A program made the translations under genes and the position numbers. From Amphiscolops sp. MND2022 (lineage: Eukaryota), in assembly GCA_964187785.1 (NCBI GenBank), contig OZ076409.1:73968001-74032000 (forward strand): a DNA stretch of 64,000 bases, in the 5' to 3' direction. Below are positions 1-57,722 of this stretch, piece by piece (positions within the stretch are counted from its first letter, which is position 1; every line of letters begins with the position of its first letter). Below the pieces are notes generated by a model. That model made no database searches, was not told the origin of the DNA, and worked only from the letters and a program-made list of their open reading frames with translations.

Positions 1-1509
1 TAAGTTGGAAACCTTGGTATCCATGGTTTCTGTCGGAACCTACTCGCAGCCAAACACCCAACAGTTTGCATCCAATGTGAAATAAAAAATTTTTTCGAGG
101 TCATAAGCGTTTCACAAGGTTTTCATGATTTAGTATTAAATTACATAGTGGTCATTTTAAACATAAAATTTTGGTCCAGGCATGTCGGATATAGTCTGAA
201 TGCTCACGAACGGTCCTACTGGCAACGTAGGAACCATTTATAGTAATAAAAAGTATTAAAAATTTTTTTCACCCGGTCTTCAGTCATTTTTCAGATATTC
301 GGAACTTAACTTAGAAAATTTTCGAACCAAATACCCATTTTTTGTCAGGTCGAAAATTGAAATTCAGCTATTAAAGCAAAATTTTTTACTCTGACGTAAC
401 CAGTGGGGTCCATGATACTCAAAAATACGATTGGGACTGGTACCAATGGCTCCTATATCATATGAGCCGCGATAAGACGTTATTTTGAGCAATACGTCTC
501 AATTGAGGTAAACATCTCGCAAGCCTGGGATCACAGTGAAATGTAATTTCATCAAAAAATTACTCATTTTCGTCAATCACTATGTGCATAGAGTGGGTAG
601 GGTGAGTTCCAACACTATAATGAGGTTTTTGAAGGCATCGGGTTGCTCAAGGGGTGGTATGAGTCATTACTTTCCTATATACAACTGTATTTTCAAAAAC
701 TTTTAGCCCATTATCTGGAAAAACTAACTTGACAAAATACTTTCAATTACTTTATTCAAAGGTTACAATATAGATGAACACTGTGGTTGATCAGAAACTT
801 TCATCTCTTTCGTTTTCCGAAATAACTCCTTTCAAATGTGTTACATTTGTAGCAGGAAAAAAAACTGAAACTAAAAAATACGCGATTTTGCTGAGATAGA
901 ATCGCAATGGTTGCGCCTAAAATCTCTTTAAAAACTTCTAACGCAGCCTTATGGACCCAAAATGATTGAAAATGCCATTCACAATGCTGACATGTGCTCT
1001 TTCTACGATCCTGGCTGGACAAGTTTTGCATTTTTTTCAAGTACCTGTTAACTGAACATTGTGATAGCCTTTCAAGTTGGCCTTGTGTCAACTTGGGAAG
1101 GCTGTCACATCAAAAAACTGTCCACAAAAATACCATTTGTTTATAGGATATTGCTGTCGATGCTTCACTTCGTGATTCGATCATGTCGTGAGTTCCTTCC
1201 ATCAGGTCAGCTAACATTTGGATTCAGTGTTGGATAAGAACCTATGATTTTCATGACAATTTTCGTTTTTTTTTTGCCAACAAAAAGTACAAATAAATGA
1301 TATAAAACATATTTGTAACCTCTAGGAAGTTTAACTTTACCTTTTTTACCGTTACCATCACAACCCACCCCCTACGACCTCGCAGTGTCCTCATTACAAC
1401 GCCACATAGTGTAGCGACGCCCACAGTCTGTGGGCATGCCGAGGCATGCCCTTCGACGACGTATGCCAAAAATAGCGCCCTCCGCGGTCACTACCGCGGT
1501 AGCAGCTAG
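1..1509 (+). mobile_element. Unit 0 (5' part outside window), ~2-kb class; close copy of unit 23014-25003
   Basis: Body matches 23494-25003 (ORF-track offset 23493). Internal hairpin H2 at 1061-1108, core palindrome 1432-1451, terminal hairpin CCGCGGT-cact-ACCGCGG, then CTAG 1506-1509. Confidence 0.7.
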
Positions 1510-2787
1510 GTGGTCGTTAGCATGGGATTTTCTTTATGAGCGTAGTCCACTTTTTTTAGGCCGGGGTAGGGTCCCGGGCCGTTACCAATTTCTTACGGAG
1601 GAAAAATGTGAAAATCTGCGAGTTTAAAAAATTGGCCCGTACGATTTGGCTGAAAATTGGCACACAGCATCGTCTTGGTAAACAAATGACTTTGTCCTAG
1701 TGACATTTTGCCCAGAAAATTCAAAAAGTTGGTCAAATTGAAAATTTTTTGACCGTCTAAGGCTAAAATTTGACTTTTTCGCTTTTTTTGGTCAATTTCC
1801 TCAGAACTGGTTGATTTTGGTGAAGTAAGTCATAAGAGGTTATAAGGTCTGCAAAAAGCCATCAATTGGCTTGCATAATCAGATTTTGTCAAAAGTGTTT
1901 AGTTTTTTCAAAATTCCACACTTTTTTTTCATGTCAGTGTTTTTTGATACAATTTATTGAATTTTTACTAAGTTCCACTAAATATTTTTAAAATGTTTTT
2001 AAAAAACCTTTTTTTGCACGTTTTTGATGTTTTTTGCTCTCCCATATAGGTTTTCGCATACGGGGAACCTGAATCTGACAACGAAATAATTTTATTCCGC
2101 AGTTCAACTTACGCCATTTTTAATAGTGAAAAATCACTCATTTTCAATCTAACGAGTGAAAATATCAGAATTTAAAAACCTAAAGTTGAGTTTAAGGCGA
2201 CTTACAGGTAGAAACAAATGCTCAGAAACAAACTGATTTCTTGTATTAGCTAAAGAAAGCCTTTAAAATTCTTTTTACTTTCTTTAAATCAAAATTCGAC
2301 ACTTTTCATGAAATTTGTCAGTGGAAAAAATTTATCATTTTTTAAATTAAAAACTTGCTTTGTTGGTCATTTCCGTTAGTCATTAGTAGCTGTGTAATGC
2401 TCCAAAGCCTTTCAAGTTCTTTTGACCCTATTTGAAAATTTTTGATACTGCATAATCAATCCGAGAGAACGAAACAGTTGTGTACATTCCATCTCCCTCT
2501 TGGGGGAGATGAGAATGTACTTCCTAAAGTCCAGGTACTACAGATCATATTTGGTTTTATGCGACGCCCTCTATGCTAGTGCATATAAATACAAGTTGTT
2601 TGGCTGGATTTTGCTTCTGACTTGACGTATACTGTACGTTTGGTACTGACAATACCCATCATTTACATAACAAACGTCAACGCCACATACCCTTACCAAC
2701 GCCCATAGTCCGTAGGCATGCCGAGGCATGCCTTTCGACGACGCGCGCCAAACACAAGCGCGCCCGCACTTTTGCGGTAGCAGCTAG
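1510..2787 (+). mobile_element. Unit 1, 1278 bp, ~1.3-kb class, distinct family
   Basis: Starts GTGGTC. Left hairpin 1559-1580, H1 hairpin 2482-2520, core 2714-2733, CTAG 2784-2787. Body is seen only once in the window. Confidence 0.7.
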
Positions 2788-5022
2788 GTGGGCGGGGGTA
2801 ATTCCCCAACAAAAAAATCGGCCGGCGGGTCGGGTCCTGCCGGCCGTCCAAAATCAAAATTATACTAGTAGAAAACGGCCGGTCAAACGAGCTATTTTTT
2901 TATTTAACCGTTAGAATTTGGGTTTAGATTGCATGCGGCCATGAAATGGCCATACGAATCGAAGTTCCTGCTGACGTTTTGCGATTGAAACACTTTATAA
3001 AAAGTTATGGCCAATTTGTCAGTCACCTAGAAGGGCAAAATGAGGAAAATTTTAACAAAGTCGCTGATAACTCAAAATGTGTTATTTTTTGGACTTTGAC
3101 TGTGAAACAAGCTTGGAACCTTCATTTCGTGGCTGTGGCATTGCACTGAACGCAAAAGATGTAAAGTTTTTACATTTTTTGAAAATTTGACATTTTTGAA
3201 ATTTTTTTCACTACTATCAGTACCATATATGTCAAAAACACCTCAGAAAAAAAATTTTATTTGCTTTAACTTGGAAACCTTGGTATCCATGGTTTCTGTC
3301 GGAACCTACTCGCAACCAAACAACCAACAGTTTGCATCCAATGTGAAAATAAAAAATTTTTCTGGGTCATAAGCGTTTCACAAGGATTTCTCAACTTAGT
3401 ATTGATTTACAAAATGGTCATTTTGAACACAATATTTTCATCGAGGCTTGTCGGCTATAGCCTTAATGTTCTAGAACGGTCCCACTGGCAACGTAGGAAC
3501 CATTTATAGTAATAGAAAGTTTAAAAAATATATTATCACCCTGTCTTCAGTCATTTTTCTGTCATTCGGAACTTAACTTAGAAAAATTTCGACCAAAATA
3601 CCCATTTTTTGACAGATCGAAAATTCAAATTCAACTTTTTAAGCAAAATTATTAACTCTGACGTAACCAGTGGGGCTCATGATACTCAAAAACACGATTG
3701 GGACTGGTACCAATGGCTCCAATATCATATGAGCCGCGATAAGACGTTATTTTGAGCAATACGTCTCAATTGAGGGAAACATCTCGCAAGCCTGGGATCA
3801 CAGTTAAAAGTGATTTCGTCAAAAATTTACTCTTTTTCGTCAATCACTATGTACACAGAGTGCGTAGGGTGAGTTTCAGCACTATAATGCGGTTTTTGAA
3901 GGAATCGGTCTGCTCAAGGGGTGGTATGAGACATTTTTTTTGCATGTAGTACTATATTTCTCAAAACTTTTAGCCCATTATCTCGAAAAGCTCACTTCGC
4001 AAATTACTTTCAGTTACTCTATTCGAAGCTTAGAATATATATGAACACTGTGGTTGATCAGAAACTCTTGACTATTTTGTTTTTGGAAAAAAACTGCCTT
4101 GCATGTGTTACATTAGTGGCAGGAAAAATACCAGTAGCTCCAAAAATCACAATTTTGGACGGACAGACCTGCAATGATGCAAAGCAAAAACGTTTCAACA
4201 ACTTCTGGCGCCACTTTTTTTACCCAAGAGGTTCGAAATTACTATTAACAATGCTGACATTCGCTATAAATAAGATCGAGGTCAATTTATTAACACTTAG
4301 GTTATACATTTATATCTGAGAAACCATTCTTTGTCAGGTCGCAATTTTAAATTTAGTTTGGGAAGCAATACTTTTCACTCTGAAGCAAACCGTTGGGCCC
4401 AAATTACTCAAAAACTACAAAAAGACTGTCACCATATGCCCTAATAGCATATGAGATTCGACCGTTCGTTTTTAACACAAAAACTCTCATCCGAAGTAAA
4501 CATGTTGAAAGCCTTGAATCACCGTGAGAAATGATTTCATCAAAAAATATTCCTTTTTCGTCAATCTTTATCTACACAGAACACGTTGTGTCATTTTCAG
4601 CCGTGAAATGAGCTTCTACCGTAATATGGGTTGCTCAAGGTGTTGTATAAGTCAAAAACTTCCTCTTTTCTACTATCTTCTTCAAATATTTCAACCCTTT
4701 GTCACAAGAAGTTAATATTCAAAATCTCTTTGAAATGTTTCTTTAGGTTGGGGTGAAGTGTTAGAACAATAATTATGATCGAAGAATGATAGTATTGGTG
4801 TTTGGACCATGTCCGGATGAACAAATTGCAAAATCATGAAAAATTTCTTACCATTTTTGGTCATTTTGTCAGTACTAAAAATGTTAGCTGAAAAAGAATT
4901 TTTTTGATGGCACCATTGGATTCCTCTCAAAAAGTTAGCTATATGAACTGTGTAATAACCCCGTATCTTTTCAATTTAAATAATTTTAAAAAGCAAACTT
5001 TTTTGACTAAAATCCTAAAAAT

Positions 5023-6370
5023 CATACCATTTCCTAAAAAATTTCAAATGCCCCCCATTTGACGTATAAGAATAGCACAGAAAACTATCACATACCGATC
5101 GACTCTACTTCCATTGTAAATTACCAGAATTTTGTTTAGAACAATTTTTGACGGATGCAAAAAAAATTTAAACCCTCCAAAAAAGGGCCAAAATTACACG
5201 AAAAAATTGACCTTAAAATTTTAAAATGTCGAAAAATCATCAAAACCACAGCTTCTTGGGGTTCTATCAACTCCACGTGGTCCACAGAGTATGTTAAAAC
5301 AAGTTTTACCCGTATTTGAGCAATATGTGAAAAAGCCGACTTTTTTGGGAATGAAAAACATACCATTTCCTAAAAAATTTCAAACGCACCCCATTTGACG
5401 TATAAGAATAGCACAGAAAACTATCACATACCGATCGACTCTACTTCCATTGTAGGTTACCAGAATCTTGTTTAGAACAATTGTTGACGGATGCAAAAAA
5501 AAATTAAACCCTCCAAAAATGGGCCAAAATTACACGAAAAAATTGACCTTAAATTTTTAAAATGTCAAAAAATCATCAAAACCACAGCTTCTTGGGGTTC
5601 TATCAACTCCACGTGGTCCACAGAGTATGCTAAAACAGGTTTTACCTGTTTCTGAGCTATATGTGAAAAAACCGACATTTTGGGGAAGAAAAACATACCA
5701 TTTCCTAAAAAATTTCAAATGCACGCCATTTGCCGTATGAGAATAGCACAGAAAACTATCACATACCGATCAACTCTACTTCTATTGTAGATTATCAGAT
5801 TCTTGTTTAGAACAAATTTTTATGGATATAAAAAATTTTTAAACCCTCCAAAAATGAGCCAAAATAACACGAAAAAATGGACCCTAAATTTTTAAAATGT
5901 CAAAAAATTATCCAAACCACAGCTTCTTGGGGTTCTATCAGCTCCACGTGGTCCACAGAGTATGCTAAAACAGGTTTTGCCCGTTTTTGAGCAGTATATG
6001 AAAAAGCCGACATTTTTGGGGAAGAAAAACATACCATTTCCTAAATAATTTCAAATGCAGGCAATTTGCCGTATGAGAGTAGCACAGAAAACTATCACAC
6101 ACCGATCAACTCTACTTCTTTTGTAGATTATCAGAATTATGTTTAGAGTAAAGTTTTATGGATATGAAAAATTTTTATACCCTCCAAAAATGGGCCAAAA
6201 TGACACGAAAAAATTGACCTCAAATTTTTAAAATGTCAAAAAATTATCCAAACCACAGCGTCTTGGCGTTCTATCAACTCCAAATGACCTTCAGAGTATA
6301 CCAAACCAGGTATTGCCAATCTTTTGAGCAATATTTAAAAACACCGACAATTTGGCAAGAACACCATAAT
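5023..6370. repeat. Internal tandem repeat, ~4 x 336 bp (unit 2)
   Basis: CATACCATTTCCTAAA recurs at 5023, 5359, 5694 and 6030. End position approximate. Confidence 0.9.
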
Positions 6371-7436
6371 ATGTTCCATATAAGAAGTGAATCATTCCAC
6401 ATATATACCCGGTCTAATATTTCCAAATTAGCGATAACATTTATACATGATGGTTTTTGAAAGTGAGCTTCATAAGAGGTTGAGATGTAATAATACGTAA
6501 ATGGACCCTAAGTTTCATTGAAATCTCAATTGAATACGTCCAATCAACTTCAATCCTAACTATTATATATCAAAAAACACTTGAGTACATTCCATCTCCC
6601 CATCGGGGGAGATGAGAATGTACTTTTCAAAAGCCAAAAACTTCGAATTTTAAATCTTTTGTAACATTGTATGTAACTGTTGAAACGATGAACGAATAAA
6701 AATGCTTCTAGTACCTTCATCAATTTTTGCTTCAGCTCCTATTTCTGCAGAACAAAACCAAAAGACACACTTACAGCAGTTAAGTTCGATTGTATAACTC
6801 AGTGAATAAAGGTATGACTGAGGAAGTTCACAAGTTGTTTCAAAAGTTTCCGGCCTTCCAAAATCATGAAACGTCCACACAACCAAGATAGCAAGTGAAA
6901 GAATGCTGAATGCACCTTATTAGATGAGATAAATAATGTGTGGAACTTGCCATTATCTCAAGATGACGTTGATTTATGATCTTTTCAGGATAGTTCGATA
7001 TGTGACCACAATAGTGGAAAACTTATTACTATTTGAAGAACACCGTGGAAAGCGTTCAGAAAGGACAGTATATTTGTTTCGAGCATGCATGCGTGTGTTC
7101 CTTTGGTGACGTTAGCTTAGTGTACATGACGGAGGTATTCGAGAGATTATGATAGAGTTTACTCACAAGTCTTTGTTTTTTTAAACTTTCTATGCCGTTG
7201 AGTACATTCGTAAGGTACATCCATCCCCTTCTCTGGGAATGTACGTTTGCCAAATGACTGTCATCCAAAATTCGTAATCCGGACGAGTTTAACTACATAA
7301 ACATGTGATGAGCGTTTTCAATTCACAACCGAATAACATTTTTTTCTCGAAAATGATGATGGTTTTGATTTTGATGTCTTCTACTTTTATCATCATGCAA
7401 ACGACCTTACCATGTCTCTCTTCTGTCGTCATTTGT

Positions 7437-7549
7437 ACAACGCCACATAGCGTTCCGACGCCCACCGTCTGTGGGCATGCCGAGGCATGCCCTTCGACGA
7501 CGTATGCCAAATGAGCCATACCCGCACTCTGGAGTGCGGTAGCAGCTAG
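7437..7549 (+). other. Representative conserved right-end module (present in all 23 unit ends)
   Basis: CAACGCC...CGACGCCCAC-GTCYGT-RGGCATGCCGAGGCATGCCY-TTCGACGACG-variable spacer-GC hairpin-CTRR. About 48-59 nt separate the palindrome from the end. Confidence 0.9.
7473..7492. promoter_or_regulatory. Invariant 20-bp palindrome, probable protein-binding site; 19/20 match to the p53-family response element (representative of 23 copies)
   Basis: GGGCATGCCG|AGGCATGCCC compared with RRRCWWGYYY x2 with zero spacer. Function not demonstrated. Confidence 0.5.
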
Positions 7550-9531
7550 GTGGGCGGGGGTAATTCCCCTTCAAAAAATTCGGCCGGCGGGTTGGGTCCT
7601 GCCGGACGTCAAATAGTGTGAAACATCCAGTAGGAAACGGCGACATTTATCAGCGATTTTAAAATTTAACCGTTAGAATTCGGACTTGGAGTGCATGCGG
7701 CCCCAAAATGCCCATACGAATGGAAGTTCCTGCTGACGTTAAGCGATAAAAACACTTTATAAAAAGTTATGGCCCATTTTACGTTCACTTAGAGAGGTAA
7801 AATGAGGAAAATTTTAACAAAGTTGCTGATAACTCAAAATACTTTAATTTTTGGACTTTGACTGTGAAACAAGCTTGGAACCTTCATTTCGTGGCTGTGG
7901 CATTGCACTGAACACAAAAGATGTAAAGTTTTCACATTTTTTGAAAATTCGACATTTTTGAATTTTTTTCACTACTATCTGTACACTATATGTCAAAAAC
8001 ACCTCTGAAAAAATTTTTTGTTTGCTTAAATTTAGAAACCTCGGTATCCATGGTTTCTGTCGGAACCTACACGCAGCCAAACACTCAACAGTTTGCATCC
8101 AATGTGAAAATAAAATTTTTTTCGGGGTCATAAGCGTTTCACAAGGATTTCTCAACTTAGTATTAATTTACAAAATGGTCATTTTGAACACAATATTTTC
8201 ATCGAGGCTTGTCGGCTATAGCCTTAATGTTCTAGAACGGTCCCACTGGCAACGTAGGAACCATTTATAGTAATAGAAAGTTTTAAAAAAATTTTTTCAT
8301 CCGGTCTTCAGTCATTTTTCAGTCATTCGGAACTTAACTTAGAAAAATTTCGACCAAAATACCCATTTTTTGTCAGGTCGAAAATTCAAATTCAGATTTT
8401 TAAGCGATATTATTAACTCTGACGTAACCCATGGGGCCCATGATACTCAAAACAACGATTGACACTGGTATCAATGGCTCCAATAACATATGAGTCGCGA
8501 TAAGACGTTATTTTGAGCAATACGTCTCAATTGAGGTAAAGATCTCGCAAGCCAGCGATCACTGTGAAATGTGATTTCATCATAAATTTACTCATTTTTG
8601 TCAATCACTATGTGCACAGAATGCGTAGGGTGCGTTTCAGCACTATAATGAGGTATTTGAAAGCATCGAGTTGCTCAAGGGGTGGTATGAGACATTTTTG
8701 TCCCATATACTTCTGTATTTTCCAAAATTTTTAGCCCAATATCTGGAAATACAAACATGACAAATAACTTTCAACTACTTTATTCAAAGGTTACAATATA
8801 GATGAACACTGTGGTTGGTCAGAAACTTTCATCTCTTTCGTTTTCCGAAATATTTCCCTTCGCATGTGTTACATTTGTAGCAGAAAAAAAATCGATACTG
8901 AAAAATACGCTATTTTGCTAATATAGAATCGCAATGATTGTGCCTAAAAACTCTTTAAACACTTCTAGCGCGACCTTACGCACCCAAAATTATCGAAAAT
9001 GCTATTCACAATGGTGACATGTGCTCTTTCAACGATCCTGACTGAACAATTTTCGCAAATTATTCAAGTACCTGTTAACTGAATCTCGTGATAGCCTTTT
9101 AAGTTGGCCTTGTGTCAACTTGGGAAGGCTATCACATCAAAAAATTTCCAACAATAATACTTTTTGTTTATTGGAAATGACAGTCGATATATAATTTCGT
9201 GATTCTATACTACCGTTAGTACCTTCCATTAAGTCACGTGACGATTGCATTCAGTCTTTGATAAATACCTATGAACTCGAAGTCATATTTATAAATTTTT
9301 CGCTAAAAATAATTATCAAAATTATCCAAATTATTTAAAATTGAGTCTTTATCGTTTTTGTTTTTCTTTTTCTACTGTTATTAGGCCCATCAACTTCCTA
9401 CAGCCACGCTCTCTGTCATTAGTACAACGCCACATAGTGTTGCGACGTTCACAGTCTGTGGGCATGCCGAGGCATGCCCTTCGACGACGTATGCCGAATA
9501 CCGCGGGCCTACGCCCGCGCTCCCCGGCTAG
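7550..9531 (+). mobile_element. Unit 3, 1982 bp, ~2-kb class
   Basis: Shares its first ~1.27 kb with the 4.76-kb class. H2 at 9088-9135, core 9460-9479, hairpin CGCGGGC-ctac-GCCCGCG, CTAG 9528-9531. Confidence 0.75.
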
Positions 9532-12500: not shown

Positions 12501-14293
12501 TATCACATACCGATCAACTCTACTTCTATTGTAGATTATCAGATTTTTGTTTAGAACAAATTTTTATGGATATAAAAAATTTTTAAACCCTCCAAAAATG
12601 AGCCAAAATAACACGAAAAAATGGACCCTAAATTTTTAAAATGTCAAAAAATTATCCAAACCACAGCTTCTTGGGGTTCTATCAGCTCCACGTGGTCCAC
12701 AGAGTATGCTAAAACAGGTTTTGCCCGTTTTTGAGCAGTATATGAAAAAGCCGACATTTTTGGGGAAGAAAAACATACCATTTCCTAAATAATTTCAAAT
12801 GCAGGCAATTTGCCGTATGAGAGTAGCACAGAAAACTATCACACACCGATCAACTCTACTTCTTTTGTAGATTATCAGAATTATGTTTAGAGTAAAGTTT
12901 TATGGATATGAAAAATTTTTATACCCTCCAAAATGGGCCAAAATGACACGAAAAAATTGACCTCAAATTTTTAAAATGTCAAAAAATTATCCAAACCACA
13001 GCGTCTTGGCGTTCTATCAACTCCAAATGACCTTCAGAGTATACCAAACCAGGTATTGCCAATCTTTTGAGCAATATTTAAAAACACCGACTATTTGGCA
13101 AGAACACCATAATATGTTCCATATAAGAAGTGAATCATTCCACATATATACCCGGTCTAATATTTACAAATTAGCGATAACATTTATACATGATGGTTTT
13201 TGAAAGTGAGCTTCATAAGAGCTTGAGATGTAATAATACGTAAATGGACCCTAAGTTTCATTGAAATCTCAATGGAATACGTCCAATCAACTTCAATCCT
13301 AACTATTATATAACAAAAAACACTTGAGTACATTCCATCTCCCCATCGGGGGAGATGAGAATGTACTTTCCAAAAGCCAAAAACTTCGAATTTTAAATCT
13401 TTTGTAACATTGTATGTAACTGTTGAAACGATGAACGAATAAAAATGCTTCTAGTACCTTCACCAATTTTTGCTTCAGCTCCTATTTCTGCAGAACAAAA
13501 CCAAAAAACACACTTACAGCAGTTAAGTTCGATTGTATAACTCAGTGAATAAAGGTATGACTGAGGAAGTTCACAAGTTGTTTCAAAAGTTTCCGGCCTT
13601 CCAAAATCATGAAACGTCCACACAACCAAGATAGCAAGTGATAGAATGCTGAATGCACCTTATTAGATGAGATAAATAATGTGTGGAACTTGCCATTATC
13701 TCAAGATGACGTTGATTTATGATCTTTTAAGGATAGTTCGATATGTGACCACAATAGTGGAAAACTTATTACTATTTGAAGAACACCGTGGAAAGCGTTC
13801 AGAAAGGACAGTATATTTGTTTCGAGCATGCATGCGTGTGTTCCTTTGGTGACGTTAGCTTAGTGTACATGACGGAGGTATTCGAGAGATTATGATAGAG
13901 TTTACTCACAAGTCTTTGTTTTTTTAAACTTTCTATGCCGTTGAGTACATTCGTAAGGTACATCCATCCCCTTCTCTGGGAATGTACGTTTGCCAAATGA
14001 CTGTCATCCAAAATTCGTAATCCGGACGAGTTTAACTACATAAACATGTGATGAGCGTTTTCAATTCACAACCGAATAACATTTTTTTTCTCGAAAATGA
14101 TGATGGTTTTGATTTTGATGTCTTCTACTTTTATCATCATGCAAACGACCTTACCATGTCTCTCTTCTGTCGTCATTTGTACAACGCCACATAGCGTTCC
14201 GACGCCCACCGTCTGTGGGCATGCCGAGGCATGCCCTTCGACGACGTATGCCAAATGAGCCATACCCGCACTCTGGAGTGCGGTAGCGGCTAG
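9532..14293 (+). mobile_element. Unit 4, 4762 bp, 4.76-kb class (near-identical to unit 2)
   Basis: ORF track repeats at offset 6744. Core 14217-14236, CTAG 14290-14293. Confidence 0.75.
11767..13115. repeat. Internal tandem repeat, ~4 x 336 bp (unit 4)
   Basis: Same monomers as unit 2. End approximate. Confidence 0.88.
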
Positions 14294-17200: not shown

Positions 17201-19055
17201 TACCATTTCCTAAAAAATTTCAAATGCACGCCATTTGCCGTATGAGAATAGCACAGAAAACTATCACATACCGATCAACTCTACTTCTATTGTAGATTAT
17301 CAGATTTTTGTTTAGAACAAATTTTTATGGATATAAAAAATTTTTAAACCCTCCAAAAATGAGCCAAAATAACACGAAAAAATGGACCCTAAATTTTTAA
17401 AATGTCAAAAAATTATCCAAACCACAGCTTCTTGGGGTTCTATCAGCTCCACGTGGTCCACAGAGTATGCTAAAACAGGTTTTGCCCGTTTTTGAGCAGT
17501 ATATGAAAAAGCCGACATTTTTGGGGAAGAAAAACATACCATTTCCTAAATAATTTCAAATGCAGGCAATTTGCCGTATGAGAGTAGCACAGAAAACTAT
17601 CACACACCGATCAACTCTACTTCTTTTGTAGATTATCAGAATTATGTTTAGAGTAAAGTTTTATGGATATGAAAAATTTTTAAACCCTCCAAAAATGGGC
17701 CAAAATGACACGAAAAAATTGACCTCAAATTTTTAAAATGTCAAAAAATTATCCAAACCACAGCGTCTTGGCGTTCTATCAACTCCAAATGACCTTCAGA
17801 GTATACCAAACCAGGTATTGCCAATCTTTTGAGCAATATTTAAAAACACCGACTATTTGGCAAGAACACCATAATATGTTCCATATAAGAAGTGAATCAT
17901 TCCACATATATACCCGGTCTAATATTTTCAAATTAGCGATAACATTAATACATGATGTTTTTTGAAAGTGAGCTTCATAAGAGGTTGAGATGTAATAATA
18001 CGTAAATGGACCCTAAGTTTCATTGAAATCTCAATGGAATACGTCCAATCAACTTCAATCCTAACTATTATATAACAAGAAACACTTGAGTACATTCCAT
18101 CTCCCCATCGGGGGAGATGAGAATGTACTTTTCAAAAGCCAAAATTTTCGAATTTTAAATCTTTTGTAACATTGTATGTAACTGTTGAAACGATGAACGA
18201 ATAAAAATGCTTCTAGTACCTTCATCAATTTTTGCTTCAGCTCCTATTTCTGCAGAACAAAACCAAAAGACACACTTACAGCAGTTAAGTTCGATTGTAT
18301 AACTCAGTGAATAAAGGTATGACTGAGGAAGTTCACAAGTTGTTTCAAAAGTTTCCGGCCTTCCAAAATCATGAAACGTCCACACAACCAAGATAGCAAG
18401 TGAAAGAATGCTGAATGCACCTTATTAGATGAGATAAATAACGTGTGGAACTTGCCATTATCTTAAGATGACGTTGATTTATGATCTTTTAAGGATAGTT
18501 CGATATGTGACCACAATAGTGGAAAACTTATTACTATTTGAAGAACACCGTGGAAAGCGTTCAGAAAGGACAGTATATTTGTTTCGAGCATGCATGCGTG
18601 TGTTCCTTTGGTGACGTTAGCTTAGTGTACATGACGGAGGTATTCGAGAGATTATGATAGAGTTTACTCACAAGTCTTTGTTTTTTAAAACTTTCTATGC
18701 CGTTGAGTACATTCGTAAGGTACATCCATCCCCTTCTCTGGGAATGTACGTTTGCCAAATGACTGTCATCCAAAATTCGTAATCCGGACGAGTTTAACTA
18801 CATAAACATGTGATGAGCGTTTTCTATTCAAAACCGAATAACTTTTTTTTTCTCGAAAATGATGATGGTTTTGATTTTGATGTCTTCTACTTTTATCATC
18901 ATGCAAACGACCTTACCATGTCTCTCTTCTGTCGTCATTTGTACAACGCCACATAGCGTTCCGACGCCCACCGTCTGTGGGCATGCCGAGGCATGCCCTT
19001 CGACGACGTATGCCAAATGAGCCATACCCGCACTCTGGAGTGCGGTAGCGGCTAG
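14294..19055 (+). mobile_element. Unit 5, 4762 bp, 4.76-kb class
   Basis: Near-identical to unit 4 except for a variant patch near 14415-14545. Core 18979-18998, CTAG 19052-19055. Confidence 0.75.
16529..17875. repeat. Internal tandem repeat, ~4 x 336 bp (unit 5)
   Basis: Same monomers as unit 2. End approximate. Confidence 0.88.
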
Positions 19056-29900: not shown

Positions 29901-31738
29901 ATTTCCTAAAAAAATCAAATGCACGCCATTTGCCGTATAAGAATAGCACAGAAAACTATCATATACCGATCAACTCTACTCCCATTGTAGATTATTAGAA
30001 TTTTATTTTGAATGATTTTTGATGGTTATTAAAAAATTTTGAGCCCCCCAAAAGCGGGCCAAAATTACACGAAAAAATTGACCTTAAAATTTTAAAATGT
30101 CAAATAATCATCGAAACCACAGCTTCTTGGGGTTCTATCCACTCCACATGGCCCACAGAGTATGCCAAACCAGGTTTTGCGCGTTTTTGAGCAATATTTG
30201 AGAAAGCCGAGTTTTTTGGGGAAGAAAAACATAACATTTCCTAATAAAATTCAAATGCACGCCATTTGGCGTATGACAATAGCACAGAAAACTATCACAT
30301 ACTAATCAACTCTACTCTCTTTGTAGATCACCAGAGTTTTGCTTAGAATAAATTTTGATGAATATTTGTAAATTTTAAACCCTCCTAATATGGGCCAAAA
30401 TCACACGGAAAAATTGACCGTAAGGTATTAAAATGTCAGAAATTCATCAAAACCACAGCTTCTTGGGGTTCTATCATTTCTATATGACTTTCAGAGTATA
30501 CCAAACAAGGTATTAACATTGGGCGATAATTAAAAACACCAATTTTATTTTAGAAGAAAACCATAATAAGTTCAATATAAGAAGTGAATCATTCCATATA
30601 TATACCCTGTCTTATATTTTAAATTAGCGATAATATATATACTTGATGTTTTTTGAAAGTGAGCTTCATAAGTGGTTGAGATGTGATAATACGTAAATGG
30701 ATTCCAAGTTTCATCGAAATGTCAATGGAATACGTCCAATCAACTTCAATCTTAACAATTAGATAACAAAAAACCTAAGTACATTCCATCTCCCCATCGG
30801 GGAGATGAGAATGTACTTTTCAAAAACCAAAAACTTAGATGTTTTTTTTTTGTAACACTTACTGTAACTGCTGAAATGATGAAAGAATAATTATGCTTCT
30901 AATAACTCCATGATTTTTTGCTTCAGCATTTTTTTTGCAGAACAAAACCATCAGACATATTTTTCGCAGTTAAGTTCGATCGTATTACCCAGTGAACAAA
31001 GGTATGGAAGGATGTTTACAAGTTGTTTCAAAACTTTCCCGCCTTCCAAAATAATGAAACGTCTACACAACCAAGATAGCAAATGAATGAATGCGGAATG
31101 CATCTTATTAGATAAGATAAATAACGTGTAGAACTTACCTTTATCTGAAGTTGACGTTGATTTATGATCTTTAGAGGATAGTTTGATTTTTGACCATAAT
31201 AGTGGGAAACTAATTATTATATGAATGATGGCGTGGAAAGCGTTCAGAAATTGTAGTATTTTGGATTCGAGCATGTATGCGTGGGTTCCTTTGGTGGCGT
31301 TAGCTTAGTGTACATGATGGAAGTTTTCGATCTGTTATGATTAATTTTACTCACGAGTCTTTGTTTTTCCTATTTTTTTGCCATTAAGTACATTCATTCT
31401 ATCCCCTTTTCTGAGAATGTACGTTTGTCAAATGACTGTCATCCAAATTTTGCATTCCCGAAGAGTTTAAATACATAACACGTGTTTAGCGTTTCCAAAT
31501 CACAACCGAGTAACATTCTATTTTTTTTTCTCAAAATTGATAATGGTTTTGATTTTGGTGTCTTCTACTTTCATCATCCATCATAACAACCACCTTACCA
31601 TGTCTCTCGCTTGTCTTCATTTTACAACGCCACATAGTGTAGCGACGCCCACAGTCTGTGGGCATGCCGAGGCATGCCCTTCGACGACGTATGCCAAATT
31701 TAGCGTTAGCCCGCGGTCACTACCGCGGTAGCAGCTAG
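26989..31738 (+). mobile_element. Unit 10, 4750 bp, diverged 4.76-kb class member
   Basis: Has the 336-bp array and H1 (~30777-30817), but its terminal hairpin is the unit 0/8 type. Core 31660-31679, CTAG 31735-31738. Confidence 0.75.
29223..30570. repeat. Internal tandem repeat, ~4 x 336 bp (unit 10)
   Basis: Diverged monomers, same copy number. End approximate. Confidence 0.85.
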
Positions 31739-34700: not shown

Positions 34701-36503
34701 CACAGAAAACTATCACATACCGATCAACTCTACTTCTATTGTAGATTATCAGATTTTTGTTTAGAACAAATTTTTATGGATATAAAAAATTTTTAAACCC
34801 TCCAAAAATGAGCCAAAATAACACGAAAAAATGGACCCTAAATTTTTAAAATGTCAAAAAATTATCCAAACCACAGCTTCTTGGGGTTCTATCAGCTCCA
34901 CGTGGTCCACAGAGTATGCTAAAACAGGTTTTGCCCGTTTTTGAGCAATATATGAAAAAGCCGACATTTTTGGGGAAGAAAAACATACCATTTCCTAAAT
35001 AATTTCAAATGCAGGCAATTTGCCGTATGAGAGTAGCACAGAAAACTATCACACACCGATCAACTCTACTTCTTTTGTAGATTATCAGAATTATGTTTAG
35101 AGTAAAGTTTTATGGATATGAAAAATTTTTATACCCTCCAAAAATGGGCCAAAATGACACGAAAAAATTGACCTCAAATTTTTAAAATGTCAAAAAATTA
35201 TCCAAACCACAGCGTCTTGGCGTTCTATCAACTCCAAATGACCTTCAGAGTATACCAAACCAGGTATTGCCAATCTTTTGAGCAATATTTAAAAACACCG
35301 ACTATTTGGCAAGAACACCATAATATGTTCCATATAAGAAGTGAATCATTCCACATATATACCCGGTCTAATATTTCCAACTTAGCGATAACATTTATAC
35401 ATGATGGTTTTTGAAAGTGAGCTTCATAAGAGGTTGAGATGTAATAATACGTAAATGGACCCTAAGTTTCATTGAAATCTCAATGGAATACGTCCAATCA
35501 ACTTCAATCCTAACTATTATATAACAATAAACACTTGAGTACATTCCATCTCCCCATCGGGGGAGATGAGAATGTACTTTTCAAAAGCCAAAAACTTCGA
35601 ATTTTAAATCTTTTGTAACATTGTATGTAACTGTTGAAACGATGAACGAATAAAAATGCTTCTAGTACCTTCATCAATTTTTGCTTCAGCTCCTATTTCT
35701 GCAGAACAAAACCAAAAGACACACTTACAGCAGTTAAGTTCGATTGTATAACTCAGTGATATAAAGGTATGACTGAGGAAGTTCACAAGTTGTTTCAAAA
35801 GTTTCCGGCCTTCCAAAATCATGAAACGTCCACACAACCAAGATAGCAAGTGAAAGAATGCTGAATGAACCTTATTAGATGAGATAAATAATGTGTGGAA
35901 CTTGCCATTATCTCAAGATGACGTTGATTTATGATCTTTTAAGGATAGTTCGATATGTGACCACAATAGTGGAAAACTTATTACTATTTGAAGAACACCG
36001 TGGAAAGCGTTCAGAAAGGACAGTATATTTGTTTCGAGCATGCATGCGTGTGTTCCTTTGGTGACGTTAGCTTAGTGTACATGACGGAGGTATTCGAGAG
36101 ATTATGATAGAGTTTACTCACAAGTCTTTGTTTTTTAAACTTTCTATGCCGTTGAGTACATTCGTAAGGTACATCCATCCCCTTCTCTGGGAATGTACGT
36201 TTGCCAAATGACTGTCATCCAAAATTCGTAATCCGGACGAGTTTAACTACATAAACATGTGATGAGCGTTTTCAATTCACAACCGAATAACATTTTTTTC
36301 TCGAAAATGATGATGGTTTTGATTTTGATGTCTTCTACTTTTATCATCATGCAAACGACCTTACCATGTCTCTCTTCTGTCGTCATTTGTACAACGCCAC
36401 ATAGCGTTCCGACGCCCACCGTCTGTGGGCATGCCGAGGCATGCCCTTCGACGACGTATGCCAAATGAGCCATACCCGCACTCTGGAGTGCGGTAGCGGC
36501 TAG
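31739..36503 (+). mobile_element. Unit 11, 4765 bp, 4.76-kb class
   Basis: The first ~0.8 kb resembles unit 10 and the remainder resembles unit 2. Core 36427-36446, CTAG 36500-36503. Confidence 0.75.
33977..35325. repeat. Internal tandem repeat, ~4 x 336 bp (unit 11)
   Basis: Same monomers as unit 2. End approximate. Confidence 0.88.
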
Positions 36504-43400: not shown

Positions 43401-45232
43401 CAAATGCACGCCATTTGCCGTATGAAAATAGCACAGAAAACTATCACATACCAATCAACTCTACTTTCATTGCAGATGAACAGAATTTTGTTTAGAATAA
43501 ACTTTACCGGATAAGAAAAAAATTTGATTCCTTCTAAAATGGGCCAAAATTACACGAAAAAATGGACCTTAAAATTTTAAAATGTCAAAAAATCATCAAA
43601 ACCACGGCTTCTTGGGGTTCTATCAACTCCACGTGGTCCACAGAGTATGCTTAACCCGGTTTTACCCATCTTTGAGCAAAATGTGAAAATACCGACATTT
43701 TTGGAAAAGAAAAACATGCCATTTTCTAATAAATTTCAAATGCACGCCATTTGCTGTATGAGAATAACACAGAAAGCTGTCACATACCGATCAACTCTAC
43801 TTCCATTGTAGATTATCAGAAGTTTGTTTAGAATAAATTTTGAAGGATAATAAAAAAATTTGAATCCATCAAAAATGGGCCAAAATTACACGAAAAAATT
43901 GACCTTAAAATATCAAAATGTCAAAAAATCATCAAAACCACAATTTCTTGGCATTCTATCAACTCCATATGATACCAAACCAGGTACTGCCAATCGTTTG
44001 AGTTATAATAAAAAAACGTCTTTTTTGGCAAGAATTCCATACCATAAATAATAATCATGTTCCATATAAGAAGCGAATCATTTCAGATATATACCCTGTT
44101 CATTTTTTTAATATTACCGATTATTAATTTAATAGATGTTTTGAATGTGAGCTTCCTAAAAGGTTCAGGTGTGATGATACGTAAATAGAACCTTAGTTTC
44201 ATCGAAATCTCAATTGAATATGTCCAATCTTAACCATCAGATAACAAGAAACACTTAAGTACATTCCATCTCCCCATCGGGGGAGATGAGAATGTACTTT
44301 CGAGAAGCCAAATACGTCCAACATTCAAACTTTTGTAACTTTGTATGTAACTCCTGAAACGAAGAAGGAATAAAATTGTTTCTGGTACATACATGAGTCT
44401 TTACTTCAGCTTCTATTTCTGCTGAACAAAACCATTCGACTCTTTTGCCGGAGTTAAGATCGATTGTATTACCCAGTGAACAAAGGCATGACTGAAAACG
44501 TTTACTACTTTGTTCATAATTTTCCGGCCTTCCGAAATGATGAAACGTCCACATAACTAAGATAGCAAGTGAATGACTGCGAAATGCACCTTATTAGATG
44601 AGGTAAATAACGTGTAAAACTCTCCTTTATCCTAACATGAGGTTGAGTAATGATCATTTGAGAATAGTTTGATATGTGAATACAATAGTATAAAACAAGT
44701 ACATTTTATATGAATAACGCCGTGGAAAGCGTTCAGAAAGGACAGTAGGCTTGTTTGGAACATGTATGTGTGGTGTCCCTTGGTGGCGTTCGCTTAGTGT
44801 ATATGTCGAGGGGTATTCGAGTTGTTATGATAGAATTTACACACAAGTCTTTTGTTTTTTGGTTTTTTTTAAAATGTCGTTAAGTACCTGCATTCTATCC
44901 CCTTCTCAGAGATGACGTGAAGTTACGTTTGCTAAATAAATGTCATCGAAAGATCACACTCCCGACGAAATTAACTATCTTAACACGTGTTTAGAATTTT
45001 AAATAAACAACCGTATAAGATTTTTATATTTCATTGAGTTTGATGAAGTCTTTTGTTCTTCTCACTACTATTTCAACCAATACACATATCCGTTACCATA
45101 TCACATGTCTCCATTAGTACAACGCCACATAGCGTTCCGACGCCCACAGTCTGTGGGCATGCCGAGGCATGCCCTTCGACGACGTATGGCAAATGGAGCC
45201 ATGCCCGCCGTCTTTACGGCGGTAGCGGCTAG
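40471..45232 (+). mobile_element. Unit 14, 4762 bp, most diverged 4.76-kb class member
   Basis: Many substitutions relative to unit 2 but the same length. H1 at ~44257-44299, terminal hairpin CCGCCGT-cttt-ACGGCGG, core 45155-45174, CTAG 45229-45232. Confidence 0.75.
42706..44040. repeat. Internal tandem repeat, ~4 x 336 bp (unit 14)
   Basis: Diverged monomers, same copy number. End approximate. Confidence 0.85.
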
Positions 45233-47220: not shown

Positions 47221-50200
47221 GTGGTCAGTGCTGTTGCGTTCATTTTTTTCCGGCCGTGGGGGAGGGCCCCTCTGAGGCCGGTCATTTTTCAGGTAACAGC
47301 TTTCTTATACAAAAAAGCGGGAAAAAACCTCAGTGCTCAAATCCCAACCGTCAGAATGAGCTGAAATTTGGCATGTAGCTAGTGCATTGCAAATGATTAG
47401 GATGGGTTATAACGCTATGTTTGGCAAAATTGGTTTTGTTGCATTTTTTTTGTCATATAGGGCCAAAAATGGCCTTTTTTGCGTATTTTTTGCTTGACTA
47501 GCTAATAACTCGCGTTGGGTTGGTACTAGCGATACGGGTGTGGGGTATGGAATTGTAAGAATACCAAGTACCTTGCTGATCACGTTATTTGATTTCCGCC
47601 CACATCACCCCCCACGCCGGAAATGCCCAATTTGTCACTTCCGGTCGCAATTTTTGACTTTTTTGGATGGAGTCAAAACCCATTTCCGGTGTGAAGGAGT
47701 GGGTTGAGCGCTTCGACCCCAATATACTAAAAGTAGGTTTAGACAAAGTCCTATTAGGAAAAAAGTAATGTAAGCCCGTACCTATCACCCCCTCACCGGA
47801 AATAGGGGTCACGCCTCCTTTTTCTGTGTTGCAAAAGTGACATGTGCACATTTGTCCAACTCCGAAGCCCCGGAGCACTGTGGGACCCTTATACTTTCTA
47901 AACACCTATCCCACACGCTACCGGAAGTGACCGGAAGTTTCACCGGAAATGACATCCTCGGACCGGAAATGGTCAAAAAATGACTTTTTTAATGCAAAAT
48001 AGACACAATTGGTGCGATTTTTAGGCAAAAAGCATAATTCGTGATACGCTTGTTGCAGTTGAAAGGGCCATTGTTCAGCAAGAATGCATACAGCATTACG
48101 TAGCACATCAAGTGGTTGATAATTTTTCGTCCATAATATCCATAGGACCGGAAATGGCCATTTTTGAATCGGAAATTTCTTCAGCTTGACTTTTAACAAG
48201 TTTTTCCACAATATTAGTGTAGGAATTGCTCGTCGGATGCTTTAGGTCTATTTTAAAACTAGCTGACTGCTTCTTAGAAATGTATTTCAGAAATCCCAAC
48301 CAATTCCAGATTACCGGAAATGGGAGTAATTGCCTCCTTTATGACCTTTGAATGATAAATTGTTAAAATCCGCAAATTATTTTATTCCACAACTGTTGCT
48401 CAGGTTATATCTAAGCAATAACATCTGCTTGTTTTGAAGTGCTGTATTGTGGGAGATACAAATATTGCTTTTTAATAGTAATACATACGTGATATTCGCC
48501 GCAATAAAGATTTTTCAAATCAACCATTTTGAAGTCCTACTGGTGTTCCGCACACCCGAAATAATTTAAGTTTCTAGTTTCGATTTTCAGGCTTCCGCGA
48601 CTATTGAGTTGAGATGATAGTTTTCACGTTCTCTGCAAAACGGGCATTTCATTGTGTATGTGACATTTATTGGGTTGTTTCACATGGTAATTCAAAACTA
48701 ATTGATCATACAATTTAGAACAATTGAAAATTTTCAATTGAACAATAAATGTTTTAATAATTTCTCTTTCGTTAAAGATACTCTTTTGTGGCCATTAGAA
48801 CAGGTTGAATTGGTTGAATAAGTAACCAGTGCGTTACATCGTTTATTACATAGCGTTTGACATCGTTTTCTTGCGAACAAAGACAAGCATGATTTGTTGG
48901 AAGTTTTTACCATATCGCTTCAAATCGATCGTGACAAACAATGAATTTCTCGTTTTAATTGCTACTTCGAAAGCAGCCTGAAAACGCAAATCGATCTATT
49001 GAGTTATGGAGATGCAACTAAGCATTTCAAGTCTGGGTTTCAATTTAATTCTATCACTCCGGACTATTTTTATGTCGCAAAAGTGATAAAGGGTGTTAGC
49101 AAGGTTAAAAACATCGAACAATTTTAAAAATAATGCCTCCGGAAAGGGAAGAAAAATGAGTTTTCCTGTCCAAACAATGATAACCACGTACGAAACATCA
49201 AGTATTTGTATTGTTCAATAGTCCAAAACATGAATGAAGTTTTTAAATATCCAAGAGTTTCTAATCAAGCATGCGTTTCAAATGTCTCACAGGGCAGCAT
49301 CGTTTTCAAAAAACAGTGCTTTCAATGTGGTTTCATACCAGCAAAACGAACGCAGGCACAACCACATTCTCAAAATTCTTGCACAACAACCAATTTCTTT
49401 GAAAATCCTATTTGATTCCTCAAGGTATATGGTGAGAACCCTGTTGGGTTCCAAAGTTGATGTGCTGTTTTCTTGGGTTTGCGAGATAAGTTACAACGGA
49501 AATCTGAAAGCAGGTCGTCTCAATAAAATACCTGTTGCTCTTTAAACGATTGGACTTAAGTAGTCGAAATTTCTTCTCAGACACTTTCGATCAGAGAATG
49601 TTTGAGTCCTAACGTTCGAATCAGGTTGGTTTCAGGTGGCTCGAAGTGCCAGCTGAACCAACCTTTCAAATAAAGAAAAACCCCACACCTCCCTTCATGC
49701 CACGCTACCCCGTATAGCGTTTCAACTTGACAGAAAGTGGAACGTTTGATTTTGGCGTCGCTTGGGATTGACACACCAGTGTTGATACTATATTTGGCAA
49801 AGAGAAATCGCAGAAATGATTGTTTCTGTTTTTTCCTTTGATTTAGTGTGTCGAGCGTACAAAGCAGTTTGGGAAACTAACTTGCATTTCCACTGAACGA
49901 AAAGCAAAAGTAGTAACATTGAAAACTTCCGGAATAAATTTAATCAGGTTTCCGTATTTGTGAGATCAGCTGCCACTCAGTTATCAGTTACATCTTTCAA
50001 ATTTTTAAGAACAACTAATCAAACTTTGCTCGACTCTCTTGGATAAGGCAACAATAGTTTACTAATCTGTACTCGTGGAAAAAAGTCAACTGCCGGGTCA
50101 AAAACAATCTGTATGTAACTTTTCTCTCGTGCAAAGTTATTTTTTACCCCCTCTGACTCAACTATAGCATGTACGTAATGAAACCAATAACACCTTCAAC

Positions 50201-50292
50201 TGTTAATCAACGCCCACCGTCCGTAGGCATGCCGAGGCATGCCTTTCGACGACGCGCGCCAAAAACAATATAACGGCGCCACCTGCTTCTGG
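47221..50292 (+). mobile_element. Unit 16, 3072 bp, ~3.07-kb class, distinct family
   Basis: Starts GTGGTCAGTG. CCGGAA(G/A)T clusters, H3 hairpin 49623-49664, core 50225-50244, ends CTGG 50289-50292. Confidence 0.7.
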
Positions 50293-53200: not shown

Positions 53201-53362
53201 CCGTGCAAAGCTTTTTTTCACACCATGTGACTCAACTATTACATGTATGTAATGAAACCAATAACACCTTCAACTATCAACGCCCACCGTCCGTAGGCAT
53301 GCCGAGGCATGCCTTTCGACGACGCGCGCCGGAAACAATCTAACGGCGCCACCCGCTTCTGG
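50293..53362 (+). mobile_element. Unit 17, 3070 bp, ~3.07-kb class
   Basis: Paralog of unit 16. H3 at 52696-52737, core 53295-53314, CTGG 53359-53362. Confidence 0.7.
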
Positions 53363-56300: not shown

Positions 56301-56419
56301 TGTATGTAATGAAACCAATAACACCTTCAACTATCAACGCCCACCGTCCGTAGGCATGCCGAGGCATGCCTTTCGACGACGCGCGCCGAAAACAATCTAA
56401 CGGCGCCACCCGCTTCTGG
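53363..56419 (+). mobile_element. Unit 18, 3057 bp, ~3.07-kb class
   Basis: Appears to be a mosaic of unit 16-like and unit 17-like variants. H3 at 55753-55794, core 56352-56371, CTGG 56416-56419. Confidence 0.7.
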
Positions 56420-57722
56420 GTGGCCACGACCATGGTTTCTTGCGTATCTTGTCGAATCTTTTGTCGTTGCCGGCCGGGGAGGGACCCGTTTGCCGGCGTG
56501 TGTAGTGTGGGGCCCCCATACCCAAAAAGTGGTATTTTTTTCAGAGATCTCAAAATCGGCCCGTCAGAATTGCCTGAAATTTGGCATGAGGCTCCCAATT
56601 GGGGAAAAAATAAGAAGTGTAGGAGGCGACTTGTTCGGGTAAATATTGTATGTTGACTTTTGGCCAAAATAGTGTTCCCCCCCAACATGGGCAAAATCAC
56701 ATGAGGTGTAAAAATATGATCACAACTTTTGAACCTTTGGATTTAGGGGTACGGTCGTGGACCACATTAAGCAAGAGCTTTGGTGAGCGGGTAGGATAGA
56801 TGAGTTTTGATCCCAGTACCTTCAACCACTTTTGAGAAATTAACGTTTCAAACAAACATCCGGGAGGTATCTGTTGCCCCTGAAGGCAGGTTTTTCGCCA
56901 TTTTCAATGTGAAGGAGTGGGTTTAGCGCAACGTGTGTGGGGTGCTTTTTTGTTGCCCGTGTGCGGAGCGTTGTATAGAGGTGCTGGTTGTTGAAATTGG
57001 AAAAGTTGGTAAAAAGTTATACCTATACCCCCCCTACTGTCTCTGCCATTCAATTTTTTTTTCAACTTCAGGCCTCCCAAAGGTGAGAAACTTCCACACA
57101 ACTAGTATTGCAAGTGAATGCATGTGGAAAGTACTTGGATAGACGAGAAAAATGAGCTATAGAACGACTCTGTAGCTTAACTTGACGTTGACTTATGACA
57201 TTTTGAGTGTGAGCTTGCTATGTGAGAAAAAAATTCAAAATTGAAAATCGAAGTAAGTCTCATCCAAAACTCATCGAAATACGTTCAATCCATCCCAAAG
57301 CGGATTAATTCCAGATATATAGTGCAGCAACACTATTCAAGACCATTTGACACAATTTTACTAGTTTTGACATTGTATTATTCATCCGAGAGCACAAAAC
57401 AGTTGGGTACATTCCATCTCCCTTTCGGGGGAGATGAGAATGTACCCGCTAAATGACACGCACCATGGTCTAAATTTTACCTTTATGCGACACTTTCTAG
57501 GCTTTCGCGCAAGCCCACTAATATTTAGACTGGTTTCTTTCTCTTTCACTCCAAACATTCCGTCCGTACTAACCACCTTACACACCACCAGCAGCTCAAC
57601 GACACATCTGTAACGTCAACGCCACATACTTGCATCAACGCCCACCGTCCGTGGGCATGCCGAGGCATGCCCTTCGACGACGTATGCCCGTTGTCACAAC
57701 AGGGCGCCCCTACATTCTCTAG
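56420..57722 (+). mobile_element. Unit 19, 1303 bp, ~1.3-kb class, distinct family
   Basis: Starts GTGGCC. Left hairpin 56469-56497, H1 at 57405-57447, core 57653-57672, CTAG 57719-57722. Confidence 0.7.

Follow-up and report, generated by a model that had tools for sequence, protein, structure and literature searches.

According to the available text of the papers cited here, Helitrons of the Helitron1 (HLE1) type end 3′ in CTRR with a short stem 10–12 nt upstream (PMC11417382, PMC5148889), and head-to-tail Helitron arrays are already known (PMC11417382, PMC5148889, PMC5876387). Helraiser, in the same portion of the literature, forms end-joined circles that are double-stranded in cells, needs double-stranded donors and does not strictly require its right end (PMC5876387). 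Other Helitrons with non-canonical ends exist (PMC5148889, PMC13085455), and those of Paramecium insert into telomeric repeats (PMC13085455). As far as these texts go, Helitron-type elements have so far been described by their two ends, and the step that leads from the peeled-off strand to a double-stranded circle is unsettled.

Single-strand origins comprise several unrelated types. On most plasmids such an origin (sso) is orientation-specific and lies upstream of the nick origin, in the accessible part of the source (PMC4595007). By its available description (PMC5027507), the attC site has R and L boxes (R box RYYYAAC/GTTRRRY), a central spacer that is unpaired and two or three bases that are extrahelical, and the crossover takes place within it.

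Here we analyse a window of 64,000 nt (the whole stretch of contig OZ076409.1 of Amphiscolops sp. MND2022 under study), in which an earlier note had singled out a hairpin with one bulged base, H1. This hairpin is real, selected and more general than that note saw.

A one-way array of several unit families

The window is a one-way head-to-tail array of 22 complete units and two more that are cut by its edges. Six of the units are 4.76 kb long, eleven belong to the 1.98-kb family (ten complete, one cut short), three measure 3.07 kb and two 1.3 kb, and one of 1.97 kb stands apart (u7); the two 1.3-kb units (u1 and u19) are diverged and only 53% identical overall.

1510, 2788, 7550, 9532, 14294, 19056, 21040, 23014, 25004, 26989, 31739, 36504: unit starts, first half
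38489, 40471, 45233, 47221, 50293, 53363, 56420, 57723, 59717, 61705, 63694: unit starts, second half
2788..7549, + strand: 4.76-kb unit u2 (family u2, u4, u5, u10, u11, u14)
7550..9531, + strand: 1.98-kb unit u3 (family u0, u3, u6, u8, u9, u12, u13, u15, u20, u21, u22)
21040–23013: u7, a separate family that has the hairpin H2 (below) in common with the 1.98-kb family
47221..56419, + strand: three 3.07-kb units, u16–u18, with right ends in CTGG
5018..6355, + strand: internal tandem repeat of 336 bp in about four copies, present in each of the six 4.76-kb units

From left to right, the 4.76-kb unit consists of 1473 nt in common with the 1.98-kb family, four 336-bp repeats, H1, and a 3′ part that contains a decayed hairpin (H1′) and is homologous to u19 and to L001 (contig OBOP01004400.1, 1172 nt), the one locus found in a metagenome pattern scan with H1. 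An internal module is common to the otherwise unrelated u7, u16 (twice) and u19 (21560–21800, 47600–47850, 48140–48340 and 56870–56940), and a higher-order duplication of 13.7 kb and four units (7424–21091 versus 24879–38540) has 92% identity. The GC content of the window is 37%, with CpG at 0.97, not depleted.

The longest open reading frame in the window is 146 aa. A Pfam scan of 79 of the 90 open frames of at least 62 aa from ten units (11 near-duplicate frames being left out) gave nothing above the cut-off and four weak matches, which we rejected; the window frames scanned thus held no coding remnant of a partner enzyme. ARAGORN predicted 0 genes in the window, and neither an array edge nor a dispersed copy lies within it. 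An array of LTR or TRIM elements was considered and rejected, since the change from one family to an unlike one falls on the junction core and not within a common block.

Unit ends and junctions

2784..2790, + strand: junction CTRG|GTG, example
2678..2787, + strand: right end common to all units, example u1 (CAACGCC-like repeats, palindrome, stem, CTRG)
2714..2733, unstranded: 20-bp palindrome, example; in 23/23 right ends and L001, 68–79 nt from the junction
2820..2846, + strand: left-end hairpin, example u2, with a conserved G-rich loop motif 39–57 nt inside the left end

All 23 junctions read CTRG|GTG (CTAG in 20 and CTGG in 3, the L001 row excluded). Each right end carries short CAACGCC-like repeats, two or three in number, followed by a palindrome of 20 bp, a GC-rich stem that is specific to the family, and finally CTRG. 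In 18 of the 23 units the stem (5–7 bp) leaves 10 or 12 nt between itself and the junction; it is weak in u7, lies 13–17 nt from the junction in u16–u19, and is weak or displaced in L001 too. Left ends begin GTG in 23/23 units (TG if cut one base later), with a 5′ TC in 0/23, and each carries the G-rich loop, whose closing stems have family-specific sequences but pair nonetheless. Such stems, present at both ends, point to single-strand recognition. In L001, the right-end block and the left-end hairpin are likewise present, and H1 lies 317 nt before a junction CGAG|GTG at 883|884.

Set beside the available descriptions of Helitron1, the units are alike in their CTRR end (23/23), in the stem 10–12 nt upstream (18/23), in having no inverted ends, and in their internal tandem repeats, shuffled ends and tandem arrays. 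They are unlike it in three respects: they begin with GTG (or TG) at the 5′ end where Helitron1 has TC; joints between unlike families are exact and contain no A|T target; and they have a conserved left-end hairpin as well as a bulged hairpin once per unit, the latter absent from those descriptions. Since the left ends are without TC, we do not file the units as HLE1. Helitron2/Helentron elements (HLE2) have asymmetric terminal inverted repeats of 12–16 nt, whereas no inverted match between the two ends was found in any of the seven unit types searched (E 0.5).

Unlike families abut exactly at 1510, 21040, 47221, 56420 and 57723, with only a 4–6-nt core in common, which argues for a site-specific enzyme; the elements may thus have their own junctions as targets. 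Between families, certain right ends and left parts have also been exchanged within common sequence; homologous exchange is therefore acting too. Judged from these ends, we lean towards the view that the units are non-autonomous rolling-circle (HUH, Helitron-like) elements.

The exact joints could also be the work of another enzyme class, and we give a minor share of our confidence to the units being non-autonomous elements of Crypton type (tyrosine recombinase) or Replitron type that recombine at the GGTG core, H1 serving as accessory site; this can be combined with the other readings of H1 considered below. Unlike families with only a 4–6-nt core in common are what it would predict, and in the available text Cryptons have 4–6-bp terminal direct repeats and a proposed circle (PMC3212892), while Replitrons have short direct repeats, with Replitron-1 inserting after RG (PMC10288648). 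As in both groups, the units lack inverted ends and have a short common core at their ends, and, with a cut at CTRG|GTG, every left end would follow RG, as in Replitron-1. The GGTG core is compatible with a Crypton direct repeat, each junction holding a single copy and the window no flank. Against this, no inverted binding arms flank the junction, no enzyme is seen in the window, and animal Cryptons are described, in the part of the source available, with no terminal repeats found (PMC3212892). CTRR with a stem 10–12 nt upstream is moreover the Helitron1 signature in the texts at hand, and end stems that vary between families yet pair suggest single-strand recognition, so that the rolling-circle reading remains the one we prefer.

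The junction core TAGG|T resembles arthropod and metazoan telomeric repeats; none of the five telomeric-repeat patterns tried occurs in the window. The available accounts of Helitrons at Paramecium chromosome ends (PMC13085455) and of subtelomeric Helitron arrays in Hydractinia (10.1101/2024.11.21.624632) share several features with the window, namely non-canonical ends, target preference, one-way orientation, satellite cargo and arrays of varied unit length. By those accounts, however, Paramecium copies end in CCAA and are flanked by telomeric repeats, which are absent between the units of the window.

The right-end palindrome agrees at 19 of 20 positions with the p53-family consensus (RRRCWWGYYY twice), a site found in 9 of 200 shuffles of 14.4 kb. 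Its outer pair switches jointly between G-C and A-T (e.g., 1432–1451; L001 812–831), and either a host p53/p63 protein or the partner enzyme may have its site there. A 7-bp complement between a right-end repeat and the main left end was rejected, as it shows no covariation across families. At the 3.07-kb junctions (e.g., 50278–50297), a short stem using the GGTG core is possible across the junction.

H1 is an island of conservation

2482..2520, + strand: H1 in 1.3-kb unit u1 (1510–2787); 6-nt loop; 306 nt from the right end
6585..6623, + strand: H1 in 4.76-kb unit u2; 965 nt from the right end
13328..13366, + strand: H1 in 4.76-kb unit u4
18090..18128, + strand: H1 in 4.76-kb unit u5
30779..30816, + strand: H1 in 4.75-kb unit u10; loop shorter by one base
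35539..35577, + strand: H1 in 4.76-kb unit u11
44259..44297, + strand: H1 in 4.76-kb unit u14
57407..57445, + strand: H1 in 1.3-kb unit u19 (56420–57722); 316 nt from the right end

The earlier note had listed eight copies of H1, and all eight have exact arms and lie on the + strand; the window holds no further copy at up to 3 mismatches, and 100 shuffles gave 0.29 matches on average and never 8. As six of the copies belong to one family, four of them 97–99% identical, the eight represent three lineages and not eight independent cases. Folded with 25-nt flanks, H1 has an 8-bp outer stem, a single bulged base on the 3′ arm and an 8–10-bp inner stem, in total 16–20 pairs with neither a basal stem nor an internal loop (z −3.3 to −8.2 as RNA, −3.5 to −7.4 as DNA), and the − strand folds as well as or slightly better than the + strand. 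Its outline is TA-inverted repeat-TA, its loop sequence varies among copies, and its spacer is 5 or 6 nt. In the two 1.3-kb units the distance to the right end and the common upstream motif are as the earlier note had described them.

When the three diverged 4.76-kb lineages (u2, u10, u14) are aligned over their final 1180 nt, no arm column varies (33 of 33 invariant), whereas the region around the arms has an invariant share of 0.66. H1 was picked post hoc, but only the right-end palindrome block forms a longer invariant run than its two arms, which rank second and third. Between unrelated families H1 is 0.87–0.95 identical, whereas its 100-nt flanks are 0.39–0.54 identical in 11 of 12 comparisons and 0.68 in one (shuffled, 0.45–0.48). 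H1 is thus a conservation island in four lineages, L001 included, and the doubt that its arms might be conserved no better than their flanks is dispelled. A weaker second conserved island lies 520–700 nt from the right end and is common to the 4.76-kb family, u19 and L001 (6848–7005, 57067–57225 and L001 ~250–380).

The bulged A, held to be invariant, is not: L001 has the identical 16 core pairs with a bulged T in place of the A, and hence the position of the bulge is kept while its base is not. All 16 core pairs are invariant across the four lineages, with zero compensatory changes, and are for that reason uninformative on pairing. As for the covarying flanks described earlier, the letters do show A-T/G-C switches in the flanking pair (of 7 distinct rows, 4 have A-T and 2 G-C). 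Double changes are limited to one flanking pair, however, which is a T.T mismatch in the copy at 2482, and just as many double changes turn up in 453 of 500 shuffles. Folding of H1, as DNA or as RNA, is thus putative. The proposal of a protein-recognised single-stranded DNA or RNA structure accordingly divides: a conserved, selected, protein-recognisable element stands, and its folding is unsupported by changes in the core.

Could H1 be the neutral remnant of a small inverted-repeat transposon? Its TA-inverted repeat-TA form would fit, as would the 4.76-kb copies, whose flanks are unrelated to those of the other families, and one contig of a sequencing run (X1, below) that seemingly has another upstream flank. 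We regard this as very unlikely, for a remnant would decay with its flanks, and H1 keeps its place in three families (306, 316 and 317 nt from the end) while the flanks are 0.39–0.68 identical and the arms differ by one change in 33; it sits at an orthologous place in three diverged families, and where a spare copy exists it is the spare that decays (below).

Two analogies drawn for the bulge likewise fail. In the MS2 operator a purine bulge on the 5′ arm lies two pairs below a 4-nt loop; the bulge of H1 is an A or a T, lies on the 3′ arm and is 8–10 pairs from the loop. With attC, as far as its description is available, H1 has an extrahelical base in common, but a single one, and it has no R box (AAC/GTT), no unpaired central spacer and no internal crossover. 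A role for H1 as a folded, attC-like recombination site by which units are joined or swapped, which its single site per unit and the cassette-like array might suggest, seems to us highly improbable. The suspected breakpoint is not at H1: units are joined 267–926 nt downstream of it, at CTRG|GTG, the homology of u19 with u1 and L001 spans H1, and the bacterial, phage and plasmid collections searched held no matches. A Pol III hairpin gene was also tried for H1 and rejected, its TATA-like run and T run not being kept between families.

One hairpin per unit

1061..1108, + strand: H2; also at 9088, 20595, 22549, 24554, 26543, 38043, 40027, 46774, 59254, 61259 and 63248
49623..49664, + strand: H3 of the 3.07-kb units; also at 52696 and 55753; 667–670 nt from the right end
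7202..7244, + strand: H1′, decayed positional orthologue of H1; also at 13945–13987, 18707–18749, 31388–31422, 36156–36198 and ~44884–44926

A right end is present in 23 units, and in every one of them the most stable internal fold over 60 nt is H1 (8 units), H2 (12) or H3 (3), never two of them; these top folds have −27 to −34 kcal/mol, the runner-up −22 or weaker, and lie 306–974 nt from the right end. The 23 units amount to about seven lineages rather than 23 independent trials. We regard the once-per-unit hairpin as a well-supported anatomical rule, to which the mechanism proposed below is our inference.

H2 has an 8-bp upper stem, one 3′ bulge and a 13–14-bp lower stem (22 pairs in total, G.U pairs among them) and lies 444–465 nt from the right end. 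When u7 is compared with the 1.98-kb family, H2 is 0.90 identical, against ~0.5 around it. It has no sequence likeness to H1, with which it has the 8-bp upper stem and the single 3′ bulge in common; H3, with its bulge on the 5′ arm, stands outside this geometry. Among H2 variants, 5 pairs have changed one-sidedly (mostly G.T-type) and one pair on both sides, with 96% of cells pairing, a result that is not significant (47 of 500 shuffles are as good). The + strand of H2 folds better than the − strand in 4 of 5 variants, as RNA and as DNA. The mutual exclusion of H1 and H2 that the earlier note had proposed holds, taking its H2 to be the hairpin of the 1.98-kb units: the two never occur in one unit, because the 4.76-kb family departs from the 1.98-kb family ~68 nt before H2, onto an alternative 3′ module.

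The 4.76-kb units add a comparison within the same molecule. Their final 800 nt are homologous to u19 and L001, and H1′ occupies the place of H1 there; an intact H1 is found 617 nt upstream, between unrelated flanks. Only 26 of 51 columns are invariant in H1′, under the 0.66 background and in contrast to 33/33 in intact H1. The outer 8-mers are retained in 5 of 6 copies, the inner stem is gone, the two copies folded have weak folds (z −0.9 and −2.3), and the copy in u14 is broken differently from the others. A single intact hairpin per unit thus seems enough and needed. From the decay of the spare beside an intact H1, one natural experiment, we infer a function in the same molecule (in cis) rather than a product shared in trans, which would not be expected to need a copy in each unit. 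Taken together, H1 is very probably a selected, orientation-fixed, cis-acting element needed once per array unit, with H2 and H3 in the same slot in other families.

What is recognised there is less certain. H1 might be an inverted pair of protein binding sites in double-stranded DNA, for a dimeric partner enzyme or a host factor, the hairpin being incidental. Such a site would account for the once-per-unit need, for the 16 of 16 core pairs that are invariant in four lineages with no covariation measure that beats shuffles, for the nearly equal folding of the two H1 strands, and for the outer 8-mers that persist in 5 of 6 H1′ copies despite loss of the inner stem. It sits less well with a spacer of 5 or 6 nt and half-sites offset by one free base, with pairing that continues into the variable flanks and loop, and with H2 and H3, which lack the H1 sequence and of which H2 changes in ways that preserve wobble pairs on one strand. 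On balance we consider it a serious but rather unlikely alternative.

Somewhat less probable still is that H1–H3 act as RNA hairpins, either as a cis signal for packaging or priming on a unit transcript, should units be mobile via RNA, or as a short-hairpin precursor of small RNAs that the p53-type site might drive. The hairpins fold strongly as RNA (z −3.3 to −8.3), the combination of constant arms and a changing loop is that of microRNAs, and H2 has a 22-pair stem with G.U pairs and a + strand bias. A pre-microRNA has a ~22-bp upper stem plus a basal stem, however, and H1 (just 16–20 pairs) and H2 (22 pairs) are both without a basal stem. The window has 0 Rfam matches at E up to 1, no TATA box or T run near H1 is conserved across families, and the junctions show neither poly(A) nor an LTR or primer site; an RNA acting in trans would also leave one copy per unit unexplained.

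A candidate start site for the second strand

Under the rolling-circle reading, a partner enzyme encoded elsewhere would nick the left end and peel off the + strand; peeling would halt after the terminal stem, at CTRG, and the circle would be closed. The right-end/left-end junction of the circle would double as a preferred insertion site, and insertion at the elements' own junction would assemble unlike units, exactly joined, into an array that homologous exchange would later reshuffle. H1 would fold on the displaced + strand, late in release, and the folded hairpin would be a start or loading site for converting the single-stranded circle to a double-stranded one, comparable to a single-strand origin; the position of the bulge would matter, its base would not.

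We propose a single-strand-origin-like element because the hairpin is fixed in orientation, lies upstream of the presumed nick junction, occurs once per unit and can be exchanged for types unrelated to it, as single-strand origins also exist in several. To the sso of rolling-circle plasmids and sso1 of ICEBs1, in the available text (PMC4595007), it is alike in being a fixed-orientation hairpin upstream of the presumed nick junction and in tolerating redundancy. Orientation and position relative to the inferred nick site are sso-like in 23 of 23 units. The sso in that text differ from it in being bacterial and, for the pBAA1 type, in having three stem-loops, whereas H1 is one of 39 nt. Several observations count against the mechanism: left ends start GTG and L001 ends in CGAG, 5 of the 23 units have a terminal stem that is weak or out of place, neither H1 nor H2 exceeds shuffles in covariation, H1 folds no worse on the − strand, H3 has its bulge on the opposite arm, and H1′ decay is a single natural experiment. 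To our knowledge, eukaryotic primase requires no special origin on single-stranded DNA, which counts against a priming role. The full reading, rolling-circle units with H1 as a single-strand-origin-like start or loading site, is thus argued by analogy and is put forward tentatively, as a possibility we would not call probable.

If gene-less elements must retain one internal hairpin of several unrelated types, this would be a third cis element beside the two ends, and the second-strand step would become testable via 40–50 nt. A broader and quite speculative view, which we think improbable as a whole, is that of an undescribed eukaryotic rolling-circle group built as plasmid replicons: the joined ends would be the nick origin, H1, H2 or H3 an interchangeable upstream single-strand origin, insertion would be into the elements' own junction (perhaps at chromosome ends), and the p53-family site would tie mobilisation to DNA damage or the germ line.

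Relatives outside the window

Pattern scans of viral contigs with the right-end motif, H1 and H2, and of prokaryote genomes with the right-end motif and H1, gave 0 matches each, and blastn of 2400–2900 against phages and plasmids found no match. A text search of the literature with four motifs returned unrelated papers only, and we found no publication on these elements or on such an internal hairpin; the supplements of PMC3212892, PMC11417382 or PMC10288648, or Repbase, could hold their ends.

In the search of sequencing runs, X1 was the sole run listed (share 0.07), with no RNA run among the matches listed. It contains relatives of the units: 23 contigs aligned, 15 of them less than 90% alike. 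One X1 contig has a 56-letter loose end before 6574, and depth within 6360–6807 is confined to two bins spanning H1, a weak hint of H1 in another upstream flank. On 6360–9700, X1 has no joints and no cover of H1′ or H2 and is uninformative. At 9304–9340, a 37-nt AT-rich stretch lies under very deep X1 contig cover, probably an unrelated low-complexity match.
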